DNA of 64,000 bases, taken from an uncultured Gemmatimonadales bacterium (GTDB lineage Bacteria; Gemmatimonadota; Gemmatimonadetes; Gemmatimonadales; GWC2-71-9). Position 1 is the stretch's first letter; each line of letters starts with the position of its first letter. A program made the position numbers and the translations under genes. The stretch covers positions 1 through 64,000 of the forward strand of contig CAWJMT010000014.1 in assembly GCA_963844035.1 (NCBI GenBank), given 5' to 3'. Under the pieces are notes generated by a model, which saw nothing but the letters and a program-made list of their open reading frames with translations, was not told where the DNA came from and did not search any database. Below, piece after piece: positions 1 to 3,485 of the stretch.

Positions 1-735
1 GTGATCGGCCAAATGGATGAAGTAAAGCATGGTATCGGTGTCCGCCGCCAACTGCGTCTTGTGGATGCCGAGCTATCTGGGCGCTTCCCGAATAGCGCCT
101 GCGAGGCCTCTGCGAAGGCTTCGGCCGGATCATTCAGCACGTCATCGCGGGAGAAACGTTTCATGGCCACTGAACGCACCACATAATCGTCGGCAGCGTG
201 AATACGTTCCATCTCAGTAGTCAACGAGCTCGGCGGGGTGGAGCAGTCGCTCACCGCCCCTTGGGGTCGGCCGCACGCCAAGCAGGAATTGTACGAACGT
301 GCTACCTGCAGTCCGCCGTCGAGCGATTTACAGCCGCGGTGACATTCGGGCAGCAGGAGCCAGTGGGAGGCCCGGCTCTTCCTCCACGAACCGCACCTCC
401 CTTACCTGTGCCAGGAAGCCGATGATGGGCAGCCCGGCTTGTGCCAACAGCGCGGTCAGATAGCGGGGATGGCGATGCATCTCGGCGCGCAACTCGGGGT
501 CGCGATCCAGCCGTTGGCCGAAGTGGACCGTGGTGCCCCAGCGATCCAGCTTCTGACCCGGCGCCAGATCGAGCAGCGTGCCGCGCTCGCGCCGCGCGAA
601 AAAGTGCATCGCATCATCCAGATCGTCGAAACAATCGAGCATGAGGGCCATGGCTCCCTTGAAGTCGCCCATGTGCGACATCATCATGACCTTCAGTTCC
701 TTTTCTCAAAGATCGCGCACTACTTTCTTGTCCAC
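1..735 (-). CDS. Hypothetical protein, partial at window edge, broken by several probable sequencing indels
   Basis: GGAGG (743-747) 7 nt before GTG at 735. Frame reads VDKKVVRDL*EKELKV into ORF 328..687. Protein-like reading continues in shifted frames (HWLLLPECHRG; LLHPAELVDY/EMERIHAADDYVVRSVAMKRFSRDDVLNDPAEAF; LGIHKTQLAADTDTMLYFIHLADH) to position 1. No family recognised. Confidence 0.5.
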
Positions 736-793
736 GCAAAAACCTCCATGAAGGACAGAACTGGGGGCATGCGCAGCGAAACCTGATCAGGAA

Positions 794-1939
794 ATGCTGT
801 CAATCGGGATTATGCCAAGGTTCTCAAACGCCAGAAGATCATCGACCCAGTCGCCTGTTTATGAGAACCGGCTCTACAGACGGGCGGCAAGGGTAAGATT
901 TTGCTCGACAACGTTACACGAATCTCGTAGACATTACGCATCATCTGAAATTGTAGCTAAGCCCTCCCCGCCCGTGCGATTTGCCGCGCGCGAGCTCGCG
1001 TACCTGAACGGGCGCTCGCAGGACGAACTCGAGCAATCCCCCACGCTGACCCTGCTCTGCGGCATCGCGCACAGCCGGCTGGGGCGGCTGGACGTGGGCC
1101 AGCAGTGGGCCATGGTCGCGCAGCTGCGCGCGCGCGTACTGGGCGATCGGACGCTGGAACTGCGGGCGCTCAACGTCTGCGGCGCGATCGCGCTGGAGCG
1201 CGGCGGCATCGATCAGGCCGCGTACTTCTTCACGCGGGCGCAGGAAGAGGCGACGCAGGACAATGACATGGCCACCGTCGGCCGGTGCGCCAACAACCTC
1301 GGCATCATCGCCAACATGCAAGGCGACTACCGCCGGGCGGTCATCGCCTACGGCCGGGCGATCGCCGCGTACAAGGAGGCCCACTACGACCGCGGCATGG
1401 CTGAATCGCGACACAATCTCGCCATCAGCTACCGCGAGCAGGGGCAGTTGGACCAGGCGATGGAGGCCGCCGACGCGGCGGTGGGCGAGGCCGTGCGGCT
1501 GGGTGATCGCCAGCTCGAGGCCCAGGCGCTGGCGGGGCGGGCGGAGATCCGCATTGTGCGACGTGAGCCCGAGCTCGCCATCCAGGAAGCGGAGCGCGCA
1601 GTCGCGATGCACCGTGAGCTGAAGGACGCTGTCCGCGAGACCGAAGACCTTCGGATCCTCGCCGGGGCGCTGCGCTGCGCGGGGCAGACGGCAGACGCCG
1701 AGGCCATGCTCCGCACAGTCATCGAGCGCGCGACGCAACACGAACGGCCGCTGCTCGTCGCCATCGCCCAGCGGGATCTCGCGCATCTCCTGGCCGGCGA
1801 GGGCGACGTCGCTGCCGCGAAGCAGATGGCCGAGATGGCTCGCGCGACGTTCCAGACGCTGGGGGCGGGGGTGGAGATAGACAAGCTGGACGTGCTGCTC
1901 GAGGGTCCGGACTTCCGCACGGAGAAAGCGACCGCGTGA
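794..1939 (+). CDS. Tetratricopeptide repeat protein (true start probably downstream, ~900-975)
   Basis: Serial TPR-like helices (ALNVCGAIALERG, ANNLGIIANMQGDY, RHNLAISYREQGQL); no HTH or catalytic motif recognised. Confidence 0.8.
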   Translation: MLSIGIMPRFSNARRSSTQSPVYENRLYRRAARVRFCSTTLHESRRHYASSEIVAKPSPPVRFAARELAYLNGRSQDELEQSPTLTLLCGIAHSRLGRLDVGQQWAMVAQLRARVLGDRTLELRALNVCGAIALERGGIDQAAYFFTRAQEEATQDNDMATVGRCANNLGIIANMQGDYRRAVIAYGRAIAAYKEAHYDRGMAESRHNLAISYREQGQLDQAMEAADAAVGEAVRLGDRQLEAQALAGRAEIRIVRREPELAIQEAERAVAMHRELKDAVRETEDLRILAGALRCAGQTADAEAMLRTVIERATQHERPLLVAIAQRDLAHLLAGEGDVAAAKQMAEMARATFQTLGAGVEIDKLDVLLEGPDFRTEKATA

Positions 1940-2019
1940 AAGCCGTTCAGTCTGTGCTGCTCGCGCTGCGTGAGTTGTTCTCGAACGTTACATTCGAGAA
2001 CTACGCATTGGCCTGGTGA
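1936..2019 (+). CDS. Putative 27-aa peptide MKAVQSVLLALRELFSNVTFENYALAW
   Basis: GTG overlaps the TPR gene stop (GTGA), GGAG at 1921-1924, TGA at 2017-2019; too short for the ORF track. Confidence 0.55.
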   Translation: MKAVQSVLLALRELFSNVTFENYALAW

Positions 2020-2092
2020 GGCGGGTGAGGCTGCTGGCGGTATCGAGCATGGCGAGGCGGTACTCCACCAAGCCTGACGACCTCCAAACTCC
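2014..2092. repeat. Degenerate GGAGG/CCTCC tandem-repeat palindrome between convergent genes
   Basis: Minus strand GGAGGTCGTCAGGCTTGGTGGAG...CAGCCTCACCCGCCTCACCA resembles the element at 62719-62789. Confidence 0.4.
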
Positions 2093-3485
2093 TTCTTTAG
2101 TTCCTCAATCTGATCCTCCACCGACTTCCGCGACGACCCGCCGCGCGTCGCCCGCGCCTCGACCGAGTCCTCCCAGGTGCCAAGCTTCGTCAGGGCAGTA
2201 GCAAGCGCCGGGTGAATCTTCGCCGCCGCGGCCGCCGGCACCTTGTCGAGCGCCACCCCGGTCCGCTCGGCTTCCCGTACCAGCTGGCCCACGAGCGAAT
2301 GGCTCTCGCGGAACGGCACGCCGCCCTCGACCAATAGATCCGCCAGATCGGTGGCGCGGAGCGAGGCGTCGAGCGCGTCCTTCATGCGGTCCGGATTGAT
2401 GGTCAGCGTCGCGATCGGCGCCGCTCACCGCCGGCAACACCAGGGCGAGCGTGTCGAACGCATCGAACAAGAGCGCCTTGTCTTCCTGCAGGTCCTTGCT
2501 GTACCCGGCCGGAAGTCCCTTCAGCGTGGCAAGCATCGCGACCAGGTCTCCCAGCAGCCGGGCGGACTTGGCGCGCACCAGCTCGAACACATCCGGGTTG
2601 CGCTTCTGCGGCAACAGGCTCGAGCCGGTGCTGAACTCGTCGGCGAGGCGCACGAAGCCGAACTCGGCGCTGGTGTAGAGCACCAGCTCCGCGCCGAGCC
2701 GCGAGAGATGGGTGCCGACCAGCGTGAGCGCGAACAGGGTCTCGGCGACGAAATCACGATCGCCGGTGACGTCGAGCGCGTTGGCGCTGATCGAGCGGAA
2801 CCCCAGGGCTTCCTTCAAGAGGACGCGGTCCACCGGGAACCCCGATCCGGCGACCGCTCCCGACCCAAGCGGGCAGCTCGGCCACGCGGCGGCGCGCATC
2901 GGCGAGCCGCTGCCGGTCGCGCACCAGCGGCCAGGCATGCGCCAGCAGCACGTAGGCCCACCGCACCGGCTGCGCCCGCTGCCCGTGCGTGTAGCCGGGC
3001 AGCAGCGCGTCCATGCCCTCCGCGGCGCGCGCCACCAGGGTGCGGCCGAGCGCTGCCATCTCGGCGTCGAGGTGATCGATCGCGTCGAGGGTCCACAGCC
3101 TGAGATCGGTGGCGACCTGATCGTTGCGCGAGCGTCCCGTGTGCAGCTTGCCCGCCACGGCGCCGACTTCCTGGTACAGCAGCCGCTCCACCAGCGTGTG
3201 CACGTCCTCGTCCGGTGCGCCGACCGCGGCCCCGTCGGCCAGCCGCTCACCCACGCGATCGAGTCCTTCGAGCAGCTGGGATTCCTCCGCCGGTGTGATG
3301 ACGCCGACGCGGCCGAGCGCGTGGACCCACGCCTTGCTCGCCGCGACGTCCTGCGGCCACAAGCGGTGGTCCACGGGGAGGCTGCGATTCAAGGCGTCGA
3401 GCGCTTCGCTCGGCCCGATGGCAAACCGCCCGCCCCACATCTGGTGCGGTGCTGATTCAGTCGGATTTGGCGGCGGTTGTTTCAA
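2085..3485 (-). CDS. argH: Argininosuccinate lyase (frameshifted near ~2870 and ~2425; 3' end approximate)
   Basis: MWGGRF, HTGRSRNDQVATD, GYTHGQRAQP, STGSSLLPQKRNPD, YSKDLQEDK, GVPFRESH spread over ORFs 2754..3485, 2105..3250 and 1429..2385. Confidence 0.93.

Follow-up and report, generated by a model that had tools for sequence, protein, structure and literature searches.

Cytoplasmic tetratricopeptide repeat (TPR) receptors for short peptides have been described mainly in Firmicutes and their phages. The five-point signature given for the RRNPP family comprises a propeptide of 10–100 amino acids, export by Sec (by PptAB for SHP and PrgQ, the latter named among the RRNPP peptides), a receptor of 250–500 amino acids, TPRs, and genes that are direct neighbors (PMC10075063). 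In the SIP-RopB system, the open reading frame (ORF) of a leaderless communication peptide (LCP) encodes the mature 8-mer that binds RopB, a Firmicutes transcription activator (PMC10518010). Here we describe a 27-amino-acid ORF, MKAVQSVLLALRELFSNVTFENYALAW, that overlaps the stop codon of a TPR gene in an uncultured soil bacterium of the Gemmatimonadales. It occupies positions 1936..2019 (forward strand, from a GTG start to a TGA stop ending at 2019) of the 64,000-nucleotide stretch that we analyzed (hereafter the window), which opens contig C14 of a genome of 3.47 Mb and 84% completeness. The ORF and TPR pair likely belongs to an undescribed peptide-signaling system of a Gram-negative phylum. 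Among the papers listed by literature searches, from which subscription journals were mostly absent, none is on this system, and the only one to contain both Gemmatimonad and ZU5 concerns polymorphic toxins (PMC3482391). If the reading developed below is true, the principle of peptide-sensing TPR receptors reaches an abundant diderm soil phylum, with another peptide source and a cyclic di-GMP (c-di-GMP) output.

We compared the locus with 159 homologous loci (1.34 Mb in total), 79 from species-representative genomes (from the best 80 of 155 confirmed stretches) and 80 from metagenomes (the best 80 of 381). Named relatives are nearly all Gemmatimonadota; of the 79, two are titled otherwise and one is unclassified. 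The layout resembles that of RRNPP systems in that Pfam finds TPRs (whose fold matches include Rap), the two genes are direct neighbors (through a −4 overlap, with a coupled tail-bearing gene in 109 of the 159 loci), and the peptide has 27 residues (13–91 in its short relatives), although 56 of the 109 coupled genes encode lipoproteins of ~160–200 amino acids. It differs in that a Sec signal is lacking from the window peptide, by inspection, and from its leaderless relatives of 13–18 amino acids (hereafter micro-ORFs), and in that receptor homologues are ~650–720 amino acids long, the 381 amino acids of the window frame including foreign DNA. Thus, the TPR protein and the adjacent small peptide gene of the RRNPP-like layout proposed in a first-pass annotation of this DNA stand; the system works like Rap-Phr yet falls outside two of the five points as PMC10075063 lists them, namely Sec export and receptor length.

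Like Rap-Phr, the pair joins a cytoplasmic TPR protein without a DNA-binding domain to a small peptide gene directly downstream, whose C-terminal peptide is predicted to lie in an Asn-lined groove. Unlike Rap-Phr, it is found in a diderm phylum, its receptor is doubled, its tail is near-invariant across species, its candidate outputs are GGDEF, HD-GYP and sigma-54 proteins, and its peptide would come from a ZU5-fold lipoprotein rather than from a Sec propeptide trimmed by exoproteases. The enterococcal receptor PrgX is similarly acted on by a peptide from a lipoprotein gene, cCF10, and one from a small ORF, iCF10; there, however, cCF10 comes from the lipoprotein signal peptide and not from the C-terminus, both peptides are exported, and PrgX binds DNA. 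With SIP-RopB, as described in PMC10518010, the locus shares an ultra-small ORF that lacks a signal sequence, lies beside a TPR-type receptor and is missed by annotation. In contrast to SIP-RopB, the ORFs here span 13–27 amino acids and are coupled to the receptor stop, and the receptor, which matches TPR families only, has no DNA-binding domain.

The start of the small ORF and the stop of the TPR gene (TGA, 1937–1939) share the GTGA at 1936–1939, a −4 overlap that recurs in 40 of the 40 micro-ORF relatives classed. A GGAG at 1921..1924 (+) lies 11 nucleotides before the GTG, as compared to 5 nucleotides in 37 of these 40 relatives; judged by its sequence and spacing it is a weak Shine-Dalgarno element, and translation more likely proceeds via the overlap than from the GGAG. 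The first-pass annotation had pointed out both elements: the ORF is borne out far beyond chance, its tail ending 350 frames on one strand and none on the other (see below), and the GGAG is present but at an unfavorable distance. The N-terminal part of the ORF (1936..1968, +) appears to come from the start of a lipoprotein signal peptide (MKAVQ..LLAL) without the lipobox Cys, as suggested by 75% DNA identity over 48 nucleotides, at a weak E of 0.06, to the start of the coupled lipoprotein of locus L202; this match sits at the same position relative to the TPR stop as the first 11 codons of the window ORF. The last ten residues, VTFENYALAW (1987..2016, +), constitute the predicted binding segment (interface residues 21–30 of the 30-residue chain that was modelled), within which the conserved tail is N-Y-A-L-A-W. 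As had been noted before, no Sec signal can be recognized by inspection, the hydrophobic run being interrupted after 11 residues and no lipobox being present. Pfam found no family in the peptide, and a promoter and terminator scan gave nothing above chance. A resemblance to a transfer-messenger RNA tag (ENYALA) was dropped once the tail family emerged; Rfam over 1–2400 was empty at E 0.5. Within the ORF, FSN-VT-FEN (1978–2001) may be a tail duplication. Tandem repeats of the tail occur in L036, L044, L089 and L234 (e.g., SYSGYAVSYSGYAVSY), and in L234 a second YAIGW-stop follows the ORF.

The tail defines a family that is tied to the TPR gene. Frames ending in [YF][AGSE][LIVMFA][AGSC][WY]-stop number 350 on the TPR strand of the 159 loci and zero on the opposite strand; 124 of the 350 end in SNYAVAW. 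A six-frame scan of the whole 3.47-Mb genome for an NYAxAW-type pattern revealed two matches, both directly after TPR-family genes: the window ORF, and a 21-codon frame directly after a paralogous TPR on contig C37. The first gene past the TPR stop carries the tail at its end in 109 loci, as a full-length lipoprotein (56 loci), an intermediate of 44–91 amino acids (11 loci) or a micro-ORF (42 loci, namely 40 first classed plus L113 and L124, both ordinary micro loci). The remaining loci lie too near a contig end (15) or carry something else (35); 23 of these 35 continue with a 530–575-amino-acid gene of the kind represented by TPR-HD, and one, L180, has a 16-amino-acid coupled ORF ending in AVAW. 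An early view from 32 loci, that no conserved ORF follows the TPR stop, was overturned by these wider sets, and the expectation of the first-pass annotation that a conserved small ORF would follow homologous TPR genes in a diderm lineage is upheld. The reverse test pointed the same way: the DNA pattern for N-[YF]-A-[ILVM]-[AG]-W-stop matched 41 times in 301 genomes of the phylum, as compared to 3 times for a reversed control (the IUPAC pattern omits TTG-Leu and hence misses the window's own ORF, and one of the 41 ends in TGG). These matches fall in 21 of the 301 genomes, all of the window's family (20 of 125 others), and for 35 of the 41 a gene of the window's TPR family is present on the same strand no more than 4 kb away.

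Further members of the tail family were observed in other settings. The window's own genome holds a fuller cassette on C37 (G000:C37:6434–9169; loci L031 and L264), with a frameshifted ZU5 lipoprotein ending in HFSEYAVSW and then a doubled TPR; its 21-codon frame ends in RRSNYAIAW, starts inside the last codons of the TPR gene and has a 41-amino-acid orthologue in L234. In L037, L038, L039, L043, L046 and L236, lipoprotein-like or signal-bearing ORFs of 46–96 amino acids carry the tail without ZU5 on either side of the TPR gene, and may be exported forms unable to self-cleave. A stand-alone 18-amino-acid ORF, MSLITWLVEALSNYAIAW, lies at L224:5202–5258, with a strong GGAGG, a hairpin downstream and no TPR-family gene within 5 kb; it is divergent from a 1161-amino-acid gene whose start looks SARP/BTAD-like.

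The micro-ORFs offer the clearest view of selection on the tail. They comprise 33 distinct DNA sequences of 13–18 codons, without a hydrophobic leader, in which N, A, I, G and W are invariant and Y and F alternate; synonymous codons and all three stop codons are present, and lengths differ by whole codons only. Over the last six codons the proportion of non-synonymous differences (pN) is 0.028, as compared to 0.44 for synonymous ones (pS), and by this measure the micro-ORF tail is under purifying selection. The conserved C-terminal tail that the first-pass annotation anticipated thus exists, as N-[YF]-A-[ILV]-[AG]-W-stop. Conservation owing to the overlapping start of a GGDEF gene was rejected: TAC, TTC and TTT variants destroy the GGDEF ATG, and the variation fits the peptide frame. 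Because the micro-ORF loci form a single clade on the TPR tree (SH-aLRT, a likelihood-ratio branch support, 100), they count as one origin. All short forms lack HF|S (the putative cleavage site discussed below) yet keep the C-terminal hexapeptide, and the micro-ORFs thereby amount to a natural deletion series in which signal peptide, lipid anchor, ZU5 domain and cleavage site are lost and the tail is kept. Since this series spares the tail under selection, it makes a genetic case for the tail as the active unit in itself, for which the pairing of lipoprotein and TPR gene alone would be insufficient. It also flags a class of genes of 13–27 codons, below the usual length cut-offs of annotation.

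The lipoprotein that occupies the coupled position in other loci ends in HF|S-N-Y-A-[VI]-A-W. Its domain was modelled with high confidence (predicted local distance difference test, pLDDT, 96), and the best fold match is the ZU5 domain of ankyrin (Foldseek E 2e-5; VIA-align Z 11.7, root-mean-square deviation (rmsd) 2.5, 111 residues aligned); further matches include UNC5b, the GAIN domain of CD97 (Z 8.7) and the ZU5 domain of ZO-1. Pfam gave no ZU5 match to the lipoprotein, and a PDB sequence search with its profile gave no significant match. HFS (residues 121–123) lies in the turn between strands 114–121 and 124–128, before the last strand. A profile search recovered 1,973 representatives at E 0.001; the best 150 of these include 123 with H[FY] close to the C-terminus, of which 120 continue with S, T or C and 112 stop exactly seven residues later. 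The intermediate forms keep signal peptide and lipobox, and the tail is also found in arrays of several lipoprotein genes. The H-X-(S/T/C) motif is absent from the window ORF. HFC replaces HFS in 73 of 334 ZU5 lipoprotein ends (loci L033–L052 and L061–L219), a Cys nucleophile variant, and many distant lipoproteins have xF[ST] without the His.

Bacterial MAIN domains are cut between the F and S of HFS, as determined by Edman sequencing (Brogan and Rudner, bioRxiv 10.64898/2026.05.12.724683); the main text of that preprint has no occurrence of Gemmatimon, TPR or lipoprotein, and its supplements may list Gemmatimonadota proteins. The parent lipoprotein has the fold and the HFS motif of these proteins, and since the motif is kept in most relatives and its His is missing in 27 of 150, we infer that it self-cleaves at HF|S, but probably not universally. 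As in adhesion G-protein-coupled receptors (GPCRs), the strand after the cut would play the part of a tethered agonist. Unlike MAIN, which frees a large N-terminal ectodomain from a C-terminal anchor according to the preprint, the lipoprotein has an N-terminal lipid anchor and the freed piece would be a 7-mer, and the window ORF has lost the domain altogether. If this reading is true, a micro-peptide signal has been caught while being born from a folded domain, and the lipoprotein strand is the soluble equivalent, in bacteria, of the tethered agonist in adhesion GPCRs.

How the window ORF came to be short can be judged from close relatives. Contigs in the soil runs X2 and X5, which come from two independent studies, span the TPR end and the small ORF at ~88–91% identity; their GTGA is intact, and they show a 3-nucleotide in-frame deletion at 1974 and no stop among the changes listed, which in the first half of the ORF are mostly non-synonymous. 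Since differences within about 30 nucleotides of the alignment ends are unlisted, the tail may differ in X2 and X5 at up to 4 and up to 3 positions, respectively; similarity to X5 stops at 2022, 3 nucleotides past the stop codon. A DNA search of 300 genomes of the family found no orthologue of the 27-amino-acid ORF, only two short weak matches. Relatives differ in the N-terminal half of the peptide, mostly by non-synonymous changes, so that this half looks like a spacer. The first 11 codons resemble the start of a coupled lipoprotein and the end matches the lipoprotein tail, and the window ORF is therefore best seen as the product of an in-frame internal deletion of a lipoprotein gene. Its TPR gene is sister to that of L061, which precedes a full lipoprotein (SH-aLRT 96 on a 37-row tree), and at least four changes between short and full forms are required on that tree, whose backbone is weakly supported; the second TPR tree was a 143-row FastTree. 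By this phylogeny, the shortening of the window ORF is independent of the 13–18-amino-acid clade. The first-pass annotation thus missed that the peptide appears to be a trimmed descendant of a ZU5-fold lipoprotein, and that the natural receptor is apparently doubled rather than 381 amino acids long.

On the receptor side, the window carries what we call module B (995..1939, +), the 3' half of a doubled-TPR gene, which is all-helical, has no output domain and lacks the first helix of the module (Pfam TPR_12, E 1e-15). TPR_12 and TPR_10 exceed the Pfam cut-off and only TPR families match, in the window protein as in a full doubled homologue; an NCBIfam scan of the receptor gave no family above cut-off. 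The NNLG and HNLA motifs and the lack of an output domain reported in the first-pass annotation were confirmed. The window protein is 79–80% identical to module B of the homologue in genome G001. Among homologues, 148 of 159 are doubled TPRs of ~650–720 amino acids and the other 11 run off a contig end; single-module forms occur among more distant relatives. Because DNA homology begins at 994–999 and homologues are doubled, the window holds only the second module of a natural receptor of ~670 amino acids. In view of the foreign 5' DNA and the doubled homologues, a stand-alone 381-residue receptor was rejected, and the gene start at 794 that had been proposed is not plausible. The ratio of non-synonymous to synonymous substitution rates (dN/dS) of module B is 0.21–0.52 against nine relatives, the nearest relative behaves similarly against the same set, and GC content at third codon positions (GC3) is 0.89. 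Both measures match those of relatives, and a pseudogene was rejected; private changes are 28–32 synonymous as compared to 18–25 non-synonymous, and recent decay is possible.

An AlphaFold model of module B (pLDDT 93) matched APPBP2, MalT, LGN and Rap proteins at Z 29.6–22.9. The top match was APPBP2, a reader of C-degrons (Z 29.6, rmsd 3.6, 315 residues aligned); phage phi105 Rap with its peptide matched at Z 25.4 (rmsd 2.7, 284 residues), so that APPBP2, MalT and LGN (Z 29.6, 26.7 and 26.5) stand at or above Rap, on a scale that discriminates poorly among helical repeats. By sequence, RapF was matched at E 6e-9 and LGN/Pins better, at E 1e-24.

These folds, and the binding that follows, are predictions of models, unlike the ORF, its coupling, conservation, selection and neighborhood, which are observed. 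As the first-pass annotation had suggested, we modelled the peptide with the TPR protein, and the tail is predicted to lie in the Asn-lined groove: the complex with module B scored 0.77, as compared to 0.22 for the best of three controls. The mark for this score, which 116 of 157 solved complexes attain and 2 of 215 mismatched pairs do as well, is a rough guide only, our own alignments having been used. Runs shared at least 54% of contacts, with a partner pLDDT of at least 51. Confident contacts came from the last ten peptide residues only, chiefly with R100, N103, N104 and N144. R100, N103 and N104 (GRCANN; 1283..1297, +, numbering from window position 986) make the lowest-error contacts, with L, A and W of the peptide, and would hold its last residues; H143-N144 (HNLA; 1412..1417, +) would form a second Asn rung of the groove, N144 touching Y and A. 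The Asn residues belong to the NNLG and HNLA motifs that the first-pass annotation had picked out. All four residues are invariant across 67 aligned sequences, conservation of the contact columns is 0.89 as compared to an average of 0.73, and both modules, A and B, keep the pocket. Within the micro clade, the lipoprotein encoded upstream has W or L in its tail in place of Y. Of the eight fixed changes in module A of this clade, two fall in the pocket, and one of these is at residue 147, a modelled contact of that Y; of the 11 in module B, none falls there. These pocket changes fit one peptide per module, although they come from one clade and a single event. With ligand and pocket residues named, the prediction is testable with a synthetic 7-mer and one recombinant protein, without culturing.

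Taken together, we are fairly confident that the tail is a ligand of the TPR protein at all, whether it acts from the cytoplasm, as an exported signal or as a C-terminus that is sensed. We give an even chance to a more specific proposal, in which the 27-amino-acid peptide is a cytoplasmic, constitutively made ligand that fills site B of a receptor with two sites, and this receptor acts on c-di-GMP enzymes. The micro-gene would have arisen by in-frame internal deletion of the gene for an exported ZU5-fold lipoprotein, which occupies the same position in relatives and would release its last beta-strand through a cut at His-Phe|Ser. Its product would likely stay in the cytoplasm, where the free C-terminal N-Y-A-L-A-W is predicted to dock in the groove of the TPR module encoded just upstream, the N-type tail being read by module B and that of the upstream lipoprotein by module A. 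Because the receptor has no output domain, it would act in a Rap-like manner, by protein contact, on co-transcribed GGDEF, TPR-HD-GYP or sigma-54 proteins. Site B would be occupied constitutively by the leaderless form, which would serve as a set-point or competitor, and the exported tail would remain the regulated input. Descent by deletion, translation, self-cleavage, location, output and the sign of the effect are our proposals here. More tentatively, we suggest that Gemmatimonadota possess a system of their own apart from RRNPP, in which a self-cleaving ZU5 lipoprotein supplies its last beta-strand as the signal, a two-site TPR reader gates c-di-GMP enzymes, and the whole carrier domain has been repeatedly deleted to leave 13–27-amino-acid leaderless genes that short-circuit or tune one site from inside.

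Several observations weigh against this reading. The window copy lacks module A and an output gene and lies between two doubtful joins, the GGAG of its ORF is badly spaced, and one RNA run gave no contig cover across 1801–2200, which is uninformative on expression either way. The kin are not independent, the 13–18-amino-acid forms all being one clade; the absence of the cleavage-motif His from 27 of 150 representatives means that self-cleavage may not be general; and six of the 41 pattern matches have no TPR gene in the fetched stretch (three lie close to the end of a contig, one does not end in a stop, and the others are a lone lipoprotein and a stand-alone 18-amino-acid ORF). The modelled chain had 30 residues, three in-frame upstream residues having been added, and its score, obtained with our own alignments, may reflect likeness to solved TPR-peptide structures. 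The window ORF could instead be a non-functional leftover of a deleted lipoprotein gene, which the rearranged or mis-assembled stretch, the poor Shine-Dalgarno spacing, the mostly non-synonymous changes listed in the N-terminal half and the failure to find the ORF by DNA search in 300 family genomes would suit. However, the frame and start overlap are retained in relatives from two studies, with an in-frame indel, repeated independent deletions all leave the tail in frame, and a parallel micro clade is under purifying selection; we consider a leftover improbable.

The micro-peptide could also leave the cell without a leader, in the way of streptococcal LCP/SIP, and be taken up again, serving as a true signal between cells; leaderless secreted peptides have precedent (PMC10518010), the tail is short and hydrophobic, intermediates retain signal peptide and lipobox, and L224 encodes the same tail in a stand-alone 18-amino-acid ORF with a strong Shine-Dalgarno sequence, away from TPR-family genes. 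Yet two membranes would have to be crossed, no exporter recurs among the neighbors, and a tail that is near-invariant across species (SNYAVAW in 124 of 350) would make a poor private code, and we see this as unlikely. Alternatively, the TPR protein could monitor export as a C-end reader that binds, in the cytoplasm, the C-terminus of unexported or unfolded lipoprotein precursor, cleavage being incidental and the micro-ORF a threshold buffer. This requires no import step and fits the top structural match, the loss of HF|S with retention of the hexapeptide in all short forms, and the 27 of 150 representatives without the catalytic His; but Z values among helical repeats discriminate poorly, and it is hard to explain without cleavage why H[FY][STC] lies exactly seven residues from the end in most of the family, with 73 Ser-to-Cys swaps among 334. 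We regard it as unlikely. An ORF that works in cis rather than by providing a ligand, controlling the next gene through translational coupling or ribosome stalling, would agree with a GGDEF gene that starts within or just past the ORF in micro loci, but not with a tail that is also the final beta-strand of a folded domain, occurs in multi-lipoprotein arrays and fits the TPR groove in the model; this reading is very unlikely. Least probable is a precursor of a ribosomally synthesized and post-translationally modified peptide (RiPP), an option that the first-pass annotation had raised. Small size, an aromatic tail and a weak NCBIfam match to the RiPP TPR protein HaaT (35 bits, with a cut-off of 1125) speak for it; among the recurrent neighbors of the 79 genome loci, however, no RiPP modifying enzyme, protease, transporter or exporter was recognized (13 clusters scanned, several without a Pfam family).

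The proposed action on c-di-GMP enzymes draws on the neighborhood of the cassette. Across the 79 genome loci, the genes that recur encode a GGDEF protein (42 loci), a second GGDEF protein that is membrane-bound (30), TPR-HD (22) and a sigma-54 activator (11), and the GGDEF gene lies directly downstream in 32 of 35 micro loci; none of these recurrent neighbors adjoins the window copy. Three solute-binding proteins of family 5 are encoded in the genome and may offer a way of import, without being linked to the cassette. The GGDEF protein that follows the micro-ORF in L097:6946–7767 and related loci keeps its GGDEF motif intact (together with RxxD in L113 and L124), and its N-terminus bears repeated ERRSG/ERR motifs, a candidate TPR- or c-di-GMP-binding segment. 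The sigma-54 activator at L091:1613–3073 has no Pfam receiver or sensor domain before AAA and is a candidate TPR target. At L135:722–1348 and 22 other loci (23 of 79), a conserved gene of ~200 amino acids without Pfam or NCBIfam match lies divergently upstream of the cassette and is possibly its regulator.

The cassette itself is real, but its surroundings in the window probably reflect chimeric assembly or recent rearrangement. What looks like an N-terminal extension of the TPR frame (794..994, +) is foreign DNA outside the system: homology of the TPR gene to relatives starts at 994–999, and window 1–994 matches contigs of three soil DNA runs at ~99%, of which the pieces that reach 994 continue beyond it (in the one continuation shown, X2, into unrelated DNA). 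On the other side, an unbridged stretch at 2023..2083 (no strand), between the cassette and the 3' end of argH, is spanned by no soil-run contig and is a possible second join. A conserved tie to the arg operon was rejected, since five of five same-genus genomes carry a different, non-TPR gene after argH, which we take to be HNH-like. Phage carriage was likewise rejected, there being no confirmed viral-contig relative of the TPR alignment or of the upstream gene. In the window, argH (2084–3485) has several frameshifts and no in-frame stop. Window 1–994 has several indels as compared to three independent runs, which suggests sequencing errors at this contig end. No plasmid matched window 1–994, and its gene was not found in 300 family genomes and gave no result in a protein atlas. 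That gene is frameshifted and encodes a protein of 270–286 amino acids with no Pfam family and 26 homologues, one of which has a weak Frankia_peptide match (E 0.02); the protein looks like a doubled peptide of the nitrile-hydratase-leader type.

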